Below are positions 6,853-57,191 of a stretch of 64,000 bases of DNA, in pieces. Source of the stretch: Patescibacteria group bacterium (lineage in GTDB: Bacteria; Patescibacteriota; Microgenomatia; Levybacterales; GWA1-39-11); assembly GCA_035549295.1 (NCBI GenBank), contig DASZRG010000033.1:2304-66303 (forward strand). The letters are read 5' to 3'. A program made the position numbers and the translations under genes. The stretch's first letter is position 1. Every line of letters begins with the position of its first letter. The notes under the pieces are model-generated. The model was not told the origin of the DNA and made no database searches. It worked only from the letters and a program-made list of their open reading frames with translations.

Positions 6853-8008
6853 ATTTACCTTCAGAACTTTTCAGTATTCCAGAAAGCTCCATTTTTGATA
6901 GCATTACGGAAAGTTTTGTATTTGGAATTTTGGTCTCGCGGGAAATCTCATCAATTGTCTTTTCCTCATCCTGAACACAATAAAAAATTTTCCGCTCATC
7001 TGCGTTCAGAGATTGCTTTGTCGCTTCGCTCCTCGCAATGACATAAATACCTGATTCGTGATTCTTGATTCTTAATTCGCTTAATATGTCGTCTACTGAA
7101 CTAACCAAAATCGCTCCTTGTTTTAATAATTTTAAACTTCCTTGACTCATTTGAGATGTAATCGGACCTGGTACTGCAAAAACTGTTTTGCCTTGTTTTA
7201 TTGCGAACTCGGCAGTAATAAGTGAACCACTCCCCTCTGCTGCTTCCGTGATAAGAACCGATGAACTTAGACCTGAAACAATTCGGTTGCGAGCTGGAAA
7301 CGAACCAACTGTTGCTGGCATACCTAGCGGATATTCTGAAATAATTAAGCCATTTTTATCGAGAATATTTTCATAAAGCTTTTCGTTTTCTCGAGGATAA
7401 GGACAATCAACTCCACATCCAAGAACAGCGATTGTTGAACCATTTGCATCAAGCGTCGCTTGATGAGCAACTCCATCTACTCCAAGCGCCATACCAGAGA
7501 CGATAATAAAACCATATGAGACGAGCTGTGAGACTAATGTTTCAGTAACTTGCCTACCGTAAGAAGTAATCTTGCGCGCACCGACGACGGCGATGACGGA
7601 AGAATTTGCCTGATCCTGGTCAAGCCAGGATGACAAATTCTGTCGAGATTCTGAAACAAGTTCAGAATGACAGGATAAAAGTAGTTCTTTGTTTCCTTTT
7701 ACGTAAAGGCCGATCGGTGGTGAATCGAGCTTCCTCAGACTTTCTGGATAATATTTATCTCCATAAGGGATAAAAGTCACTCGTGCTTTATTGAGCATTC
7801 CAAGATAATTTTGTATATCGAATGACTTCTTAAACTCGGCAAACTTTGCAAAATTACTTTTACCAATTCCCACCTCTTTATATTTTGCAAGAGTATCATT
7901 TTCCCATGCGTCGCGTGCTGTCCCAAACTTTTTCAATAGCTTTTGGAATCCCTTTGGACCAACACCAACCGAATTTGAAAAGGCAAGAATGAAATCTCTC
8001 TCAATCAT
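6842..8008 (-). CDS. dprA: DNA processing protein DprA (Smf)
   Basis: N-terminal SAM-like GVGPKGFQKLLKKFGTARDAW. Rossmann core VIAVVGARKITSYGRQ...IVSGMALGVDGVAHQATL...SFPARNRIVSGLS. C-terminal winged helix. Two short repeat elements are embedded in frame; see findings. Confidence 0.85.
   Translation of the reverse strand: MIERDFILAFSNSVGVGPKGFQKLLKKFGTARDAWENDTLAKYKEVGIGKSNFAKFAEFKKSFDIQNYLGMLNKARVTFIPYGDKYYPESLRKLDSPPIGLYVKGNKELLLSCHSELVSESRQNLSSWLDQDQANSSVIAVVGARKITSYGRQVTETLVSQLVSYGFIIVSGMALGVDGVAHQATLDANGSTIAVLGCGVDCPYPRENEKLYENILDKNGLIISEYPLGMPATVGSFPARNRIVSGLSSSVLITEAAEGSGSLITAEFAIKQGKTVFAVPGPITSQMSQGSLKLLKQGAILVSSVDDILSELRIKNHESGIYVIARSEATKQSLNADERKIFYCVQDEEKTIDEISRETKIPNTKLSVMLSKMELSGILKSSEGKFRV
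7018..7054. repeat. 37-bp repeat agagattgctttgtcgcttcgctcctcgcaatgacat inside the dprA CDS
   Basis: 36 of 37 nt identical to the intergenic copy at 11085..11121. Confidence 0.8.
7645..7671. repeat. palindromic hairpin repeat gagattctgaaacaagttcagaatgac inside the dprA CDS
   Basis: 26 of 27 nt identical to 8066..8092. Same family as 16378..16406, 33301..33360 and 39848..39907. Confidence 0.8.
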
Positions 8009-8065
8009 TTGCTTAAGAATATCACATTCTTGTCGTCCTGAGACTCGCTTCAGGACCTCATCGTT

Positions 8066-8092
8066 GAGATTCTGAAACTAGTTCAGAATGAC
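8066..8092. repeat. palindromic hairpin repeat gagattctgaaactagttcagaatgac in the dprA 5' region
   Basis: Stem attctgaaac/gttcagaat. Copy of 7645..7671. Confidence 0.8.
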
Positions 8093-8120
8093 GTCGTATT
8101 GGGTGTGGTAAAATTGATGT

Positions 8121-10855: not shown

Positions 10856-10921
10856 CCTAACCTCACCCCAACCCTCTCCTGCTAGGAGAGGGAGATCAAG
10901 GTTTTAGGTTATTACTAAAAA
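10856..10921. repeat. composite repeat A: C-rich box, hairpin ccctctcc-tgcta-ggagaggg, then atcaaggttttag
   Basis: Related copies at 27790..27897 and 31775..31826. Confidence 0.7.
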
Positions 10922-10923
10922 CT

Positions 10924-11085
10924 ATGAATATTCCGCAGATACTTGAAACTCTAACTGATCTTATACTTCATTTCTCGTTTGAGAAGGCAAAAGATCAATC
11001 AAAGCTTGTAGCAGTTGTATTTGCTCTTGTCGCACTGGTGGTAATCTTCTTCGGATTCGTCTTTTCATTAATACCACAATTCTAA
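10924..11085 (+). CDS. small membrane protein (53 aa)
   Basis: ATG..TAA ORF, below the length cut-off of the provided track, with one C-terminal TM helix (LVAVVFALVALVVIFFGFVF). The 11085 repeat starts at its stop codon. Confidence 0.3.
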   Translation: MNIPQILETLTDLILHFSFEKAKDQSKLVAVVFALVALVVIFFGFVFSLIPQF

Positions 11086-11121
11086 GAGATTGCTTCGTCG
11101 CTTCGCTCCTCGCAATGACAT
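11085..11121. repeat. 37-bp repeat agagattgcttcgtcgcttcgctcctcgcaatgacat (intergenic copy)
   Basis: Matches 7018..7054 inside dprA. Confidence 0.8.
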
Positions 11122-15105: not shown

Positions 15106-16293
15106 ATGGAAGAAAGTAAAGTAGCTGATACAATCGAACCCGCCTTGAGTCCTACTCAAATAAATATTTCCGAAGCTGAAAAAAGAGAAACGAACAATAA
15201 AAAAAAGTTGTTTAAAAAGATCCTATTCGCGATACTTATTATTGTTGTTATTCTAGTAATTCATGCAATAGCGGATTGGCTTGGGGTATATACGCTATTT
15301 CAAAAACCCGAGAACACAGCGCTTCACGATGATATTTCGATGTGGCACAACTCACCTCAAGTGCCGTCATTCGAAACGCCAGCAAACTGGAAAACATATA
15401 CAAGTACTCCCGGGGCATACAAAATATCTTATCCACCTGACTACACAATAAATACTGGCCATTCGATGGGAGTTGATGGCGTCATCACTGTAGAATCTGA
15501 CAGTTACACAGAACTAATTTCAACAACCATACCTACCACAAATGAAAATATGAAAATCAGCATAGATTCGAAGCTAACAGATTACAAAACTATAGACGAT
15601 GTAGCTAGCAGCGACTGTGCCGATGCAAAAAAGGGAAGAGGGGAAGTTTATGAGCGACTCGACGGGGCGCCCTCATTGATATATCGAAATATTAACTGCG
15701 GCCCGCGATCCTCGACCAAAATTTACACCATTAATAGTGGCCGTGCCTATTCAATAACTGTTGAAAGTAATATAGAAGACGAAAAAATACGGCCGATCTA
15801 CAGCGACATACTTTTAACATTTAAATTTGCGCCTAGCAAAACTCTTGATACCTCAGATTGGAAAACATATACAAATGCAGAATTTGGATTCTCATTCAAA
15901 TATCCGAGCAAATTTACAATCAAAGAAGTGAGATATTATGATGCTGAAGGGAACTATAGAAATAAACTATACCCCGATGTTTATTACTTAATTTCGTTTT
16001 ATATAAATGAAGATGGAAAAGAAGGTTATTCAAGCTATACTTTCATCGCACAAGATTATGCTGAAAATACTATTTCGCAAGCATTTAAAGACATAAAAAC
16101 GATTCCAATTACAAAACCAAATGGTGTAGATGAGGCGTCCGCAACTAGTCACCAGCTGGACAGTGGCAACTTTGACACGATCTATAGAATTGGCAATAAA
16201 TACTACTATTTTGAACCTACTATTCAAGACAGTACAAGCCGTGAACACATATGGGATTATCCAATCCTGTCAACAATTAAATTCACAAAATAG
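15106..16293 (+). CDS. membrane-anchored protein with two PsbP-like modules (cassette gene 4)
   Basis: Start chosen at MEESK to mirror the MEANK start of gene 2. The gene junction aaattcacgaaataatatggaag duplicates the gene1/gene2 junction. Modules begin NWKTYTSTPGAYKISYP and DWKTYTNAEFGFSFKYP. The protein ends ILSTIKFTK-stop. Confidence 0.6.
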   Translation: MEESKVADTIEPALSPTQINISEAEKRETNNKKKLFKKILFAILIIVVILVIHAIADWLGVYTLFQKPENTALHDDISMWHNSPQVPSFETPANWKTYTSTPGAYKISYPPDYTINTGHSMGVDGVITVESDSYTELISTTIPTTNENMKISIDSKLTDYKTIDDVASSDCADAKKGRGEVYERLDGAPSLIYRNINCGPRSSTKIYTINSGRAYSITVESNIEDEKIRPIYSDILLTFKFAPSKTLDTSDWKTYTNAEFGFSFKYPSKFTIKEVRYYDAEGNYRNKLYPDVYYLISFYINEDGKEGYSSYTFIAQDYAENTISQAFKDIKTIPITKPNGVDEASATSHQLDSGNFDTIYRIGNKYYYFEPTIQDSTSREHIWDYPILSTIKFTK

Positions 16294-16377
16294 TATTTTT
16301 TAATGATTAGTCGGGAATTGTTAACAGGTATATCTCTATAATTTGCGTCATGCTGAATTTATTTCAGCATCTCGCTT

Positions 16378-16406
16378 TCGAGGTCCTGAAACAAGTTCAG
16401 GACGAC
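16378..16406. repeat. hairpin repeat tcgaggtcctgaaacaagttcaggacgac
   Basis: Stem gtcctgaa/ttcaggac. Adjacent second hairpin gctgaatttatttcagc at 16352..16368. Confidence 0.75.
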
Positions 16407-16415
16407 AATTCGATA

Positions 16416-23994: not shown

Positions 23995-24068
23995 GTCCCC
24001 GTAGCTCAATTGGATTGAGCAGGCCCGTCCTAAGGGCAAGATTGGAGGTTCAAGTCCTCTCGGGGACG
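23995..24068 (+). tRNA. tRNA-Arg (anticodon CCT)
   Basis: Hand-folded cloverleaf. Acceptor gtccccg/cggggac. D-stem gctc/gagc. Anticodon loop gtCCTaa with U33 and A37. T-arm ggagg-ttcaagt-cctct. CCA is not encoded. Confidence 0.6.
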
Positions 24069-24070
24069 CA

Positions 24071-24142
24071 CGGGGTGTAGGTCATCGGTAGACCGCGCGA
24101 TTCGGGTTCGCGAGGCAGGGAGTCCAATTCTCCCCACCCCGA
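24071..24142 (+). tRNA. tRNA-Pro (anticodon CGG)
   Basis: Hand-folded. Acceptor cggggtg/caccccg. D-stem ggtc/gacc. Anticodon stem cgcga/tcgcg with loop ttCGGgt. T-arm gggag-tccaatt-ctccc. Confidence 0.6.
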
Positions 24143-25150: not shown

Positions 25151-25237
25151 ACCATGGCAGGGTTTTTACCATGGCAGGGTTTGACCTTGCCAAGATTAGC
25201 TTCAAAACTGGTGTTTGGCAGGGTTTGACCTTGCCAT
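25151..25237. repeat. REP doublet, upstream flank of the RAYT
   Basis: Partial copy accatggcagggttttt. Then the 70-bp unit at 25168..25237: accatggcagggtttgaccttgccaag, attagcttcaaaactggtgt, ttggcagggtttgaccttgcca. Each REP is an imperfect palindrome ggcaggg-tttga-ccttgcc. Confidence 0.85.
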
Positions 25238-25273
25238 ATTGACAGTAAATACTACTACTCGTATTGTAAGAGT

Positions 25274-25954
25274 GTGCCTGCAAAAAATAGAATTAAACCT
25301 TATATTGAAAATGGTTATTACCACATCTATAACCGCGGGGTAAACAAAAGACTTATTTTCAAAGACAAAAAGGACTGCATCGTTTTTCAAAGATTCCTAA
25401 AGCAATATCTATCTCCGAAAGATGATTTAAAAGAATTTATGAGACCGGGTGAGCGCTTGGATCGACTCATGAAGACGAATATGCATGGAGAGCTTGAGAT
25501 TCTGGCTTTTGCTCTAATGCCAAATCATTTCCATCTCTTAGTACGCCAAAAGAAACCAGAAGCTATCATAAAATTCATGAGACGTCTATGTACTTCCTAC
25601 TCTATGTATATAAATAGAAAATATCAACGAGTTGGACATTTATTCCAAGATGCATATAAAGGTGTTTTAGTTTTAGATGATCAATATCTGCTTCACTTAT
25701 CTAGATATATACATCTCAATCCAGATGCTCTAGACTCTGGCATGATAAATTTTAGAGAGTTCAATAGTTATCCATACTACTTGGGTGAACAATCAGCGAA
25801 ATGGGTTAACACAAAATACATTCTTAAGTATTTTAGAAATGAAAAAGTTGGTAACCACAATGGTTCATATGAAAATTTTATTGAAGACTATCGTAAATCC
25901 TCTACAAAAAACTTTCTTATTGGTTTAGCTCTTGATGATGACGACGTCGTTTGA
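25274..25954 (+). CDS. REP-associated tyrosine transposase (RAYT, IS200-like Y1 HUH transposase)
   Basis: HUH motif NHFHLLV. Catalytic Tyr region LSRYIHLNP. The size is that of the Y1 transposase fold. Flanked on both sides by identical REP doublets. GTG start. Confidence 0.8.
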   Translation: MPAKNRIKPYIENGYYHIYNRGVNKRLIFKDKKDCIVFQRFLKQYLSPKDDLKEFMRPGERLDRLMKTNMHGELEILAFALMPNHFHLLVRQKKPEAIIKFMRRLCTSYSMYINRKYQRVGHLFQDAYKGVLVLDDQYLLHLSRYIHLNPDALDSGMINFREFNSYPYYLGEQSAKWVNTKYILKYFRNEKVGNHNGSYENFIEDYRKSSTKNFLIGLALDDDDVV

Positions 25955-26023
25955 CCATGGCAGGGTTTGACCTTGCCAAGATTAGCTTCAAAACTGGTGT
26001 TTGGCAGGGTTTGACCTTGCCAG
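25954..26023. repeat. REP doublet, downstream flank of the RAYT
   Basis: Identical 70-bp unit to 25168..25237, beginning at the RAYT stop codon. Confidence 0.85.
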
Positions 26024-26029
26024 AAAGAG

Positions 26030-27055
26030 TTATTGGTCTGGGTCGTCATGGCCTTCGGGGTATTTGGGGATGGCGCGGCGCTCGTCGTCTTCTGGTTCTC
26101 GATTAGAAAAGCCCATGGACAATCCCAGAATGTGCGGTACTTTTGTCCATCCAACTTCCGGTAGTCCATTTACTGTCTCGTAGGGTTTTGAAACATCTAG
26201 AGCATCATCAAACTCTTGTCGACTAACTCGAATAGGTACAACAATTTTTTTAACGACTTCTCGCTCGAGATCTGTTTGCAATATCGTGAGCGCCAAACCT
26301 CTTTCTTCGATTTGTTGGACCCACCACTCAATATTATATTTAAATGGGGAAGACATATTCTCTGCCACCATCCATGCTCTATAGTTTTCGGGATGACTCA
26401 ACATAACAGGGTTACTTAAAAAACTATACTTATGTCCACTATCCGCAAAATTCCAGTGTTCGGCAGATTGACCACCATTTCCATCTCTTGCAATCGTAAA
26501 CGTAAAATCTTCTGCTTCACTGTCTATTGGTGAGAACATTCCTCCTAGAATTATTTCATCGAGCACAATATCTTGACGTTTTCTGTCGTAACTGTATGTT
26601 GCTTTTAAAAGATCTGGAAGAGTCTCGTCTGCTTCGACGGCATCATAAGGATCTGGAAGAGTCTCGTCTGCTTCGACTGTATCAAGTGATTTGTGGAAAT
26701 CGACAGATAAAACTTTTTCTCCCGGTTTTAACTTATACATTGAGTTGTAGTGACCCCTTTTTACTTCTAGAGTAAATGTTTTACTTTTTACTAGAGCTTC
26801 GTCGACATGAAATGTAAACGAATTCAAATATAAAGAGCTAATTTTATTACCCGTATCTAGATCGTGAAATCTCTCAAGGTATGTCTCTATGTCAAATGGT
26901 GGCGCCAGCCGCGGCGTATAAATACTTATAAAACCGGCCCTGATATTCATTGGGCGACCAGGTGTAAACTGTTGACTTTCATCTAAAGTGATTCCCCAAC
27001 TTTTAGGAATAATTGGTTGCCCGTCACGACTTGTTCCATTTTCAGCATATGACAT
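26030..27055 (-). CDS. hypothetical protein with an internal 39-bp tandem duplication
   Basis: ORF trimmed to MSYAENG. The longest ORF (to 27181) would overlap ndk. The unit gatctggaagagtctcgtctgcttcgac is duplicated at 26611..26677, giving VEADETLPD twice. Confidence 0.45.
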   Translation of the reverse strand: MSYAENGTSRDGQPIIPKSWGITLDESQQFTPGRPMNIRAGFISIYTPRLAPPFDIETYLERFHDLDTGNKISSLYLNSFTFHVDEALVKSKTFTLEVKRGHYNSMYKLKPGEKVLSVDFHKSLDTVEADETLPDPYDAVEADETLPDLLKATYSYDRKRQDIVLDEIILGGMFSPIDSEAEDFTFTIARDGNGGQSAEHWNFADSGHKYSFLSNPVMLSHPENYRAWMVAENMSSPFKYNIEWWVQQIEERGLALTILQTDLEREVVKKIVVPIRVSRQEFDDALDVSKPYETVNGLPEVGWTKVPHILGLSMGFSNREPEDDERRAIPKYPEGHDDPDQ

Positions 27056-27098
27056 ATTATGGGATATTATACCACGAAAATAAGAAAATGAGGGGGGA

Positions 27099-27671
27099 CT
27101 AGATGTTCTCGTCGGAGCGTTTGTAAGAGTGGATTTCCGAAGGTTCGAACCAAAGCATTTTTTCAAAGTTAGCTTCTTCAACCGAAGCTGAAATATGGAC
27201 GAGATTCATAACACCACGACGCTCATCATTGGCATATGCTGCTGAGTCGGTTGAGAAATCACCGCGAATTGTACCAGCTGGCGCTGCGACTGGCATAGTT
27301 GGACCTGCCATATTTACGACATTTTCCACTGCGTGTCGACCTTCAAGAATCATAGCTAGAATTGGTCCTGACTGGACATAGTCAAATAGCCATTTGTTAA
27401 CGAGTTTTCCAAGCTCAAGCGGGTCATCTGTTCCAAATTCTTTGATGGGATCTTTACCGTATTTTGTGTAGGTTGAGAGAGTCTTCTCCCCCCAGCGCTT
27501 AAGGGTTGCTTCCTTGTCTGATTGGTAGTGCTTGAGAAGTCTCTCTTCATCTGGCGCTACCATTTTCATTGCAACAATTTTGAGTCCCATTCGCTCAAAA
27601 CGATGTAAAATCTCACCAATTATTCCGCGCTTGACGCCGTCTGGCTTAATGAGAACTAACGTTTGTTCCAT
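27099..27671 (-). CDS. ndk: nucleoside diphosphate kinase (long form)
   Basis: LVLIKPDGVKRGIIGEIL..., GPILAMILEG, active-site His in NLVHISAS. Longer than typical Ndk because of insertions. Confidence 0.75.
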   Translation of the reverse strand: MEQTLVLIKPDGVKRGIIGEILHRFERMGLKIVAMKMVAPDEERLLKHYQSDKEATLKRWGEKTLSTYTKYGKDPIKEFGTDDPLELGKLVNKWLFDYVQSGPILAMILEGRHAVENVVNMAGPTMPVAAPAGTIRGDFSTDSAAYANDERRGVMNLVHISASVEEANFEKMLWFEPSEIHSYKRSDENI

Positions 27672-31784: not shown

Positions 31785-31826
31785 CCCAACCCTCTCTCAA
31801 AGAGAGAGGGAAGATAATGTTTTTAG
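31775..31826. repeat. composite repeat A copy
   Basis: tcaccccaaccctctctc-aa-agagagaggg then aagataatgtttttagcc. Confidence 0.65.
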
Positions 31827-31895
31827 CCTTGGCAGGGTTTGACCTTGCCAGAATTAGCTTCAAAATCAGAGTTTGGCAGGGTTTGACCTTGCCAA
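31827..31895. repeat. orphan REP doublet
   Basis: ccttggcagggtttgaccttgccag, aattagcttcaaaatcagag, tttggcagggtttgaccttgccaa. Same architecture as the RAYT flanks. Confidence 0.85.
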
Positions 31896-33213: not shown

Positions 33214-33300
33214 ATCTTTAGGTAAGAATATTATATTACAAACTTATTGTGAATGCATTAAATCAATTATGACTTTTGTAAGAAATTGCCCTCCTCATAC

Positions 33301-33360
33301 GTCATTCTGAACTCGTTTCAGAATCTCACACTCGAGGTCCTGAAATAAATTCAGGACGAC
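33301..33360. repeat. two adjacent hairpin repeats
   Basis: gtcattctgaactcgtttcagaatctc at 33301-33327 and ctcgaggtcctgaaataaattcaggacgac at 33331-33360. Confidence 0.75.
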
Positions 33361-33390
33361 AAACAAAAAACGATGTGAGCTTTGTTGCAC

Positions 33391-51897: not shown

Positions 51898-52260
51898 GTG
51901 CTATACTGTCTCACTATGGCAAATAAAACTGTAAATACTCCTGCCACCATTGTTGACGTTAACAAGGCTTTGAAGAGTTCTGAAAAGGTTTTGAGAACTG
52001 AAATATTAAGAGTTGAGGAACGTGTTGAAAGAGTTGAGGAACGCGTTGAAAGAGTTGAGGAACGCGTTGAAAGAGTTGAGATAAAGCTTACGTCAATGGA
52101 CGCAAAACTTGATAAGATTTCTAATCAATTGGATGGTTTTGTAGGAAGAGTTGATGATTTATCAAATGATAACGAAATTGGCACTGATCATATCCATGAA
52201 CTACGCAAAACCACAAAGGACCACGAGAAAAGAATTGCAAAACTTGAATCTGTAAACTAA
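51898..52260 (+). CDS. coiled-coil protein with an RVEERVE heptad tandem
   Basis: A 21-bp unit gttgaggaacgcgttgaaaga is repeated at 52011..52080 more than three times. The probable start is MANKTV. Confidence 0.4.
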   Translation: MLYCLTMANKTVNTPATIVDVNKALKSSEKVLRTEILRVEERVERVEERVERVEERVERVEIKLTSMDAKLDKISNQLDGFVGRVDDLSNDNEIGTDHIHELRKTTKDHEKRIAKLESVN

Positions 52261-57076: not shown

Positions 57077-57191
57077 ATCAAACTAGTCAAAATAGTCCAT
57101 AGACTCGATCCAAACTTGCTGCCAAGATCTGATCTTGGCAGGTAAAACTTCTTTCATTGACTAGCTGAATTTTTCCTGAAATAATTTCTCT

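Follow-up and report, generated by a model that had tools for sequence, protein, structure and literature searches.

A Y1 HUH nuclease gene bracketed by direct-hairpin cassettes in a Patescibacteria genome: a candidate low-copy, REPtron-like module

A gene for a 226-aa Y1 HUH nuclease/transposase in a Patescibacteria MAG is bracketed by near-identical copies of a 73-nt cassette, each carrying two direct copies of a 21-nt hairpin, and a third, more diverged cassette is found without such a gene elsewhere in the window (the whole 64-kb stretch of DNA that was analyzed). The interpretation we consider probable, with reservations given below, is that of a REPtron-like module of non-canonical form and low copy number, in which a class-2 Y1 HUH nuclease from a large Patescibacteria clade, encoded by a single-copy gene that is vertically inherited, is paired with a private DNA hairpin.

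To our knowledge, REP/RAYT systems have been characterized almost only in Proteobacteria, and we know of no DNA partner or function for subclass 2.1/Group 1, the largest RAYT-like group. We searched the literature for papers linking RAYTs or REPINs to CPR/Patescibacteria and found none of relevance. What emerges here is a very large Patescibacteria clade with subclass 2.1 motifs in which a cognate hairpin is present on both sides of most genes examined, with occasional orphans.

Hairpins and cassettes in the window

The 19-mer GGCAGGGTTTGACCTTGCC occurs six times in the 64-kb window, with zero mismatches and on the + strand only (starts 25173, 25217, 25959, 26003, 31831, and 31875); the count expected from shuffles is 0.03. 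They are arranged in three pairs, with starts 44 nt apart in each. The complete hairpin is 21 nt, TGGCAGGGT-TTG-ACCTTGCCA, likewise in six exact + strand copies, with a TTG loop and a 9-bp stem that includes one G.T pair. A preliminary description of this DNA had given the repeat as a REP palindrome with arms ggcaggg and ccttgcc around a central tttga: it is a palindrome, as claimed, but a longer one. The direct orientation reported there for the hairpins of each doublet applies to all six. No match was found on the - strand of the window at up to 3-4 mismatches, and the + strand folds into the hairpin better than the - strand, where the G.T pair becomes A.C.

The repeated unit is a 73-nt two-hairpin cassette, present in three copies, with both hairpins direct within each. 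The upstream copy (25164-25236, +; hairpin a at 25172-25192, hairpin b at 25216-25236, 23-nt spacer) precedes the Y1 gene (25274-25954, +, GTG start). Compared with it, the downstream copy (25950-26022, +; hairpins 25958-25978 and 26002-26022) is 99% identical and the orphan copy (31822-31894, +; intergenic, between divergent argS and ORF-31950) 88% identical. Identical 70-bp doublets on the two sides of the gene, and a third, orphan doublet, had been proposed earlier; all are present, but the exact identity of the flanking copies extends over 69 nt (25168-25236 = 25954-26022, ending where 25237 is T and 26023 is G), and the unit itself is 73 nt. Nor does the second unit begin at the stop codon, as had been thought: the TGA of the Y1 gene (25952-25954) falls within the downstream cassette, which spans the gap up to a convergent ORF ending at 26030. 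When the three cassettes are aligned together with their flanks they have sharp common ends, with similarity falling to background on both sides. An Rfam scan of the window found three tRNAs only, none of them at the cassettes.

The orphan and the flanking cassettes differ at 9 of the 31 positions outside the hairpins and at none of the 42 within them, an outcome with a chance probability of about 2e-4. Perfect hairpins combined with a drifting spacer fit recognition by a sequence-specific factor. The A-to-G change creating the G.T pair is common to all six copies (relatives have GGCAAGG), so that the six would either descend from one master sequence or have been homogenized. The conservation in the orphan and the shared A-to-G change argue for selection acting on the hairpin itself. 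The hairpins are flanked on the 5' side by ACCA, GCCT, TGTT, or AGTT; the 5' tetranucleotide that the preliminary description expected for RAYT recognition is not among them, as neither GTAG nor GTGG adjoins this palindrome class or the second one described below.

The extra partial REP noted earlier at 25151-25167 is present, and is a 17-nt tandem copy (+; ACCATGGCAGGGTTT, ACCATGGCAGGGTTTTT) of the first bases of the cassette. Partial 5'-arm copies upstream of the upstream hairpin are also seen at two of the homologous loci considered below (L044 9900-9971, where there are four of them, and L035 8605-8639), and their breakpoints vary across the window, L044, and L035. This suggests that the partial copies arose from slippage at the hairpin. 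Site-specific cleavage in the loop was considered as their source and dropped, since the differing breakpoints fit slippage better.

Several other repeats and features were recorded in the window. A second, unrelated two-hairpin cassette with direct hairpins is found at 16346-16408 and 33300-33362, both intergenic and 84% identical; it reads CGTCATKCTGAA..TTCAGMATCTC, then TCGAGGTCCTGAA..TTCAGGACGACAA, and has single relatives at 7642-7671 and 8049-8094. Since there is no second Y1 gene in the window, the partner of this cassette, if any, would be elsewhere. A hairpin family, CCCCAACCCTCTC..GAGAGGG, is present at 10865-10892 and 31785-31810; the second of these copies is 12 nt upstream of the orphan cassette, placing two different palindromic repeats next to each other upstream of argS. 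A 37-nt repeat, AGAGATTGCTTYGTCGCTTCGCTCCTCGCAATGACAT, occurs at 7008-7044 and 11085-11121 (97% identical). Between 11428 and 16309 there are four to five diverged segment copies at ~1.3-1.7 kb spacing (families D1, D2, and D8), which together look like a tandem array of paralogous genes. Closer to the Y1 gene, a 39-nt tandem repeat (26608-26684) lies inside the convergent ORF (26030-27181), and two adjacent tRNA genes (23995-24142) are located about 1.1 kb upstream.

Source genome, paralog, and copy number

The earlier impression of a CPR-type genome was correct: the source is a Patescibacteria MAG, and the window locus is also present in contig CAZMXU010000042.1 (97 kb) of Patescibacteria MAG GCA_964570355.1. 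The offset between the window and this contig is 2303 from L007 and 2282 from L050, the difference of 21 nt being one unit of a 21-nt tandem repeat found in three copies at 52008-52080.

The MAG sequence scanned comes to ~93 kb (~73 kb of the window contig and 20 kb of contig 55). The spread of the repeat through this genome, which the preliminary description had hoped to follow, is modest: the cassette of the window Y1 gene (class 1) is at three loci in ~73 kb of the window contig, a further 8.9 kb of that contig added no copies, and the class 1 hairpin does not occur in the 20 kb of contig 55. Its copy number may be far below that of true REPs. A search of 185,579 species genomes found the 19-mer only as six single matches, which were rejected as chance occurrences (unrelated, mostly high-GC taxa, with different flanks); JGI metagenomes gave 19 single matches to the 19-mer, none with cassette context.

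Contig 55 of the same MAG encodes a 67% identical paralog (P0002, L008) that has another palindrome, TGCCAAGATCWGATCTTGGCA, at its flanks: one copy precedes the gene and two follow it (L008 9224, 9987, and 10078). An orphan copy of TGCCAAGATCWGATCTTGGCA is intergenic in the window (57120-57140), on a different contig of the MAG from its paralog gene. It is the one orphan of this second (class 2) palindrome in the ~93 kb of MAG sequence.

The Y1 protein

The 226-aa ORF had initially been put forward as an HUH/Y1 protein, with a profile search as the means of checking its fold, and this identification is borne out. The protein matches Pfam Y1_Tnp (PF01797) at 2.6e-11, with 44.2 bits against a cut-off of 23; it has an HUH motif, H85-F-H87, and a catalytic Tyr145 in RYIHLNP, with H85, H87, and Y145 invariant among 38 homologs; and its predicted fold is of the TnpA type. 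It aligns from its first residue with homologs starting MPxKN. Scores with more specific models are lower: 43.3 bits for the NCBIfam RAYT model (NF047646), below the cut-off of 80, and 16.5 bits for the NCBIfam IS200 model, below the cut-off of 55. The protein shares about 20% identity with E. coli RayT, and hhalign against RayT aligns the HUH and Tyr motifs with weak support. PDB sequence searches, whether with the single protein or with a profile, returned marginal ISDra2 matches only.

An AF2 model built on the 38 homologs (pLDDT 83, pTM 0.82) finds its best PDB structural match in 4ER8, the complex of E. coli RAYT with a REP hairpin; ISDra2 and IS608 TnpA come next. Foldseek matches at E <= 1e-3 consist of 4ER8, ISDra2/IS608 TnpA chains, and one Thg1 (tRNA-His guanylyltransferase) chain at rank 16. 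The C-terminal tail is modeled as short helices at lower confidence, and residues 150-226 have no Pfam match at E <= 1, with no DnaA_C or HTH domain. In the subclass 2.1, Group 1, and TIRYT proteins, the HTH-like domain of the C-terminus may be DnaA_C, HTH_23, or HTH_28. One Y1 gene was found in the 64-kb window by HMM, and no tnpB.

Judged by its sequence and modeled fold, the protein is an HUH/Y1 enzyme on the RAYT side of the superfamily. Its motifs are NHFH, LFQ, YIHLNP, and a C-terminal SS-type motif (family consensus FSSYPYY). For subclass 2.1, Table 1 of Quentin et al. (2018; PMC6006769) lists NH[YF]H, FQ, and Y[IV]HLNP, with a median length of 238 aa; by motifs alone, the window protein fits as subclass 2.1-like, equivalent to Bertels Group 1. 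The motifs of the E. coli-type subclass 2.2 (DHLH, WE, YIHYNP) do not fit.

Homologs in other Patescibacteria

The family is large: a word-indexed search gave more than 7,900 proteins, the named ones mostly from Microgenomates-type CPR lineages, and a profile search gave 1,190 clusters at 50% identity (E <= 1e-30). Nine further homologous genes, at eight loci in other Patescibacteria assemblies, were examined for hairpins. Of these nine, six (two in L029 and one each in L035, L036, L043, and L044) are flanked on either side by a hairpin of their own; at the remaining three (L045, L046, and L048) the hairpins are inverted or of a more complex form. Close relatives keep the stem GGCAAGG/CCTTGCC and differ in their loops, and distant ones have other sequences. 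An orphan hairpin copy is also present in L029, 9 kb from the gene. A paralog with its own palindrome and homologs with their own flanking hairpins tie the hairpin to the gene, and the cognate relationship that these arrangements point to is real.

Two further observations were made at these loci. The TAACGATACGGGATCGT hairpin has a third copy in L029, at 15154-15170, and likewise in L030-L034; it falls within the coding sequence of the second Y1 gene and leaves the called ORF unbroken, an arrangement that recalls the REP insertions within tnpA-REP genes of subclass 2.4. In several Patescibacteria loci, 23S_rRNA_IVP (four-helix-bundle) genes are found 0.3-5 kb from Y1 genes (L029/L030 9100-9456 and 15588-15947; L035 2067-3884; L043 10489-10857), in two cases as the immediate upstream neighbor in the same orientation; the Y1 gene of the window has none next to it.

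Stability of the Y1 genes

The orthologs in L045 and L046 are both located between uvrA and uvrB and are 80% identical to each other, and the neighboring proteins of the same two loci are 86% (UvrB), 80% (UvrA), and 74% (UvrC) identical. Having diverged like their neighbors, these orthologs behave as domesticated genes, not as an IS. At a Levybacteria locus (P0062), the six occurrences listed come from different samples and all have the same neighbors; the hairpins there are fixed, with no presence/absence polymorphism across six of six near-identical population contigs. The Y1 genes are mid-contig, in short-read contigs of 32-168 kb, and the only second Y1 copy found in the part of the MAG examined is the diverged, 67%-identical paralog. 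Taken together, the sequence comparisons favor a stable chromosomal, domesticated gene over an IS. L035 and L036, compared in search of a clean insertion, diverge completely after 13352, a wholesale synteny break.

Promoter and gene control

A promoter-like sequence, TTGACA, 17 nt, TATTGT (25239-25267, +; 10/12 consensus), ends 6 nt before the GTG, and the upstream cassette ends 2 nt ahead of its -35 box. The same layout (-35, 17-18 nt, -10, 6 nt, start) is found at the paralog (L008) and at the homologs in L043 and L044. In L043 and L044 the TTGACA is supplied by the 3' arm of the hairpin, and in L046 and L048 the -35 box is within the hairpin loop. This promoter layout, with its 6-nt gap to the start, suggests a leaderless or near-leaderless transcript of the Y1 gene, which is probably controlled by its own upstream hairpin. 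A point against a leaderless transcript is that, in model bacteria, leaderless translation initiates poorly at GTG codons.

Possible mechanism and alternative explanations

E. coli TnpA-REP and the TnpA proteins of IS608 and ISDra2 recognize a hairpin on single-stranded DNA and cut and rejoin the DNA next to it. By analogy with these enzymes, we infer hairpin binding, cleavage, cassette mobilization, and autoregulation for the low-copy module proposed here. The enzyme would bind the 21-nt hairpin on a + strand that has become single-stranded, and would cut and rejoin the adjacent DNA; the 73-nt cassette, which flanks the gene on either side and has at least one further copy elsewhere, would be the unit that is maintained or occasionally copied, and the gene itself would no longer move. 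Hairpin formation or enzyme binding at the upstream cassette would probably control the gene's own transcription. Weighing against the module are the single orphan cassette in ~73 kb, the lack of polymorphism, and a published survey of the subclass without REPs; the orphan, moreover, need not have been transposed, and could be a solo remnant left by a gene copy since lost.

Might the palindromes instead be ordinary regulatory DNA or RNA elements (operator, terminator/insulator), locally duplicated and involving no transposition-type chemistry? Such elements would suit the position of the upstream hairpin, which at several loci adjoins or includes the -35 box, and that of the downstream cassette, which occupies the gap between convergent genes, as well as the very low copy number and the lack of any polymorphism seen; the orphan would then be terminator-like, or the solo cassette left behind when recombination between two 73-nt direct repeats removed a former gene copy. 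However, no T-run follows the hairpins and a terminator scan did not detect them, and the orphan stands between divergent genes, an implausible place for a terminator. The second palindrome class likewise has its orphan, which does not share a contig with the gene of that class; the hairpins are perfect while the spacer drifts; and the fold of the protein is that of an enzyme crystallized on such a hairpin. A purely regulatory origin seems unlikely to us.

Another possibility is that the locus is an autonomous IS200-like IS, the flanking hairpins being its left- and right-end subterminal hairpins and the orphan a PATE/MITE-like derivative or an RE-LE junction remnant. Every hairpin is on the coding strand, as in IS200/IS605 ends, the cassette has sharp common boundaries, the fold also matches IS608 and ISDra2 TnpA, and an extra Y1 gene in L036 is absent from L035. 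That last difference, however, coincides with a wholesale synteny break and not a clean insertion, and the tyrosine motif is Y---NP (class 2) rather than the Y---Q of IS200. The score of 16.5 bits with the NCBIfam IS200 model against its cut-off of 55, the lack of tnpB, and the fact that no second near-identical copy was seen in the MAG sequence examined (only 67% paralogs with different hairpins) point the same way, as do orthologs that are syntenic and diverged like housekeeping genes, and a locus that is fixed across samples; an autonomous IS must be judged quite improbable. Almost no weight can be given to a chance repeat or an assembly artifact: no points in favor of either were found, six exact 19-mers are present where 0.03 are expected, the locus is also in an NCBI record, and similar arrangements recur across independent assemblies drawn from many samples.

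The low-copy module can also be taken further, in a proposal that we offer tentatively and to which we would give a modest chance of being right. The hairpin nucleases of the large ~220-aa Patescibacteria Y1 clade may have been domesticated, each evolving together with a hairpin cassette of its own whose upstream copy carries or abuts the leaderless promoter of the gene; nuclease and cassette would form a self-regulating pair, acting on ssDNA hairpins, that places a few copies in a minimal genome. If true, this would provide a simple model for the role of the "REP-less" RAYT group (subclass 2.1/Group 1). Should the pattern described here hold on complete genomes, it would extend the REPtron idea to ultra-small genomes, give biochemists a substrate of great simplicity (a 21-nt hairpin within a 73-nt unit), and offer a marker for intragenomic repeat dynamics where there is almost no intergenic space. 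The basic picture of Y1 enzymes would be unchanged.

Comparison with known systems

With the IS200/IS605 group (IS200, IS608, ISDra2) the window locus shares the Y1 fold and same-strand subterminal hairpins at both gene ends, and its gene-less two-hairpin unit resembles an LE+RE mini-element. It differs in having a class-2 tyrosine motif and no tnpB, in failing the IS200 model, and in that no identical copies were seen and the gene is stable, syntenic, and vertically inherited.

Likeness to subclass 2.1, Bertels Group 1, and most TIRYTs/TIRtrons lies in the motif signature, in length (226 aa, near the 238 median), in the SS-type tail, and in a number of about two diverged copies per genome. 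Subclass 2.1 was reported without REP-like flanks, and with heterogeneous short tails in 2.1.2 (Quentin et al., 2018; PMC6006769), whereas hairpin flanks are present here in a protein placed by motifs, not by tree. TIRYT flanks are inverted TIRs, often GGGGWSAS, which can be self-complementary, with small families occurring as dimers (Di Nocera et al., 2013); those of the window gene are direct hairpin cassettes without GGGGWSAS.

For the REPtron, the reference is E. coli rayT/yafM (Nunvar, 2010; Ton-Hoang, 2012; Messing, 2012; PDB 4ER8). The preliminary description saw in the window the standard REP/RAYT arrangement, which was going too far. Canonical REPs occur as two in inverted orientation, with a GT(A/G)G head (Nunvar, 2010). 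Here there is no GT[AG]G head, and the hairpins within a unit are direct, not inverted, with no inverted partner in the window, so that no REPIN is formed. The protein, at about 20% identity to RayT and with 43.3 bits below the NCBIfam cut-off of 80, has subclass 2.1 motifs and a C-terminal extension of 60-70 aa; copy number is very low in the sequence scanned, and the host belongs to the Patescibacteria. On the side of likeness are the HUH/Y1 fold, with 4ER8 as its best match, and the Y---NP tyrosine motif; a gene present once and set between palindromes of its own, the composite units being direct on both sides, as at E. coli rayT (examined as a control), where the flanking BIME units are direct repeats, each with an inverted REP pair; a separate palindrome class for each paralog, with orphan copies elsewhere; and vertical inheritance.
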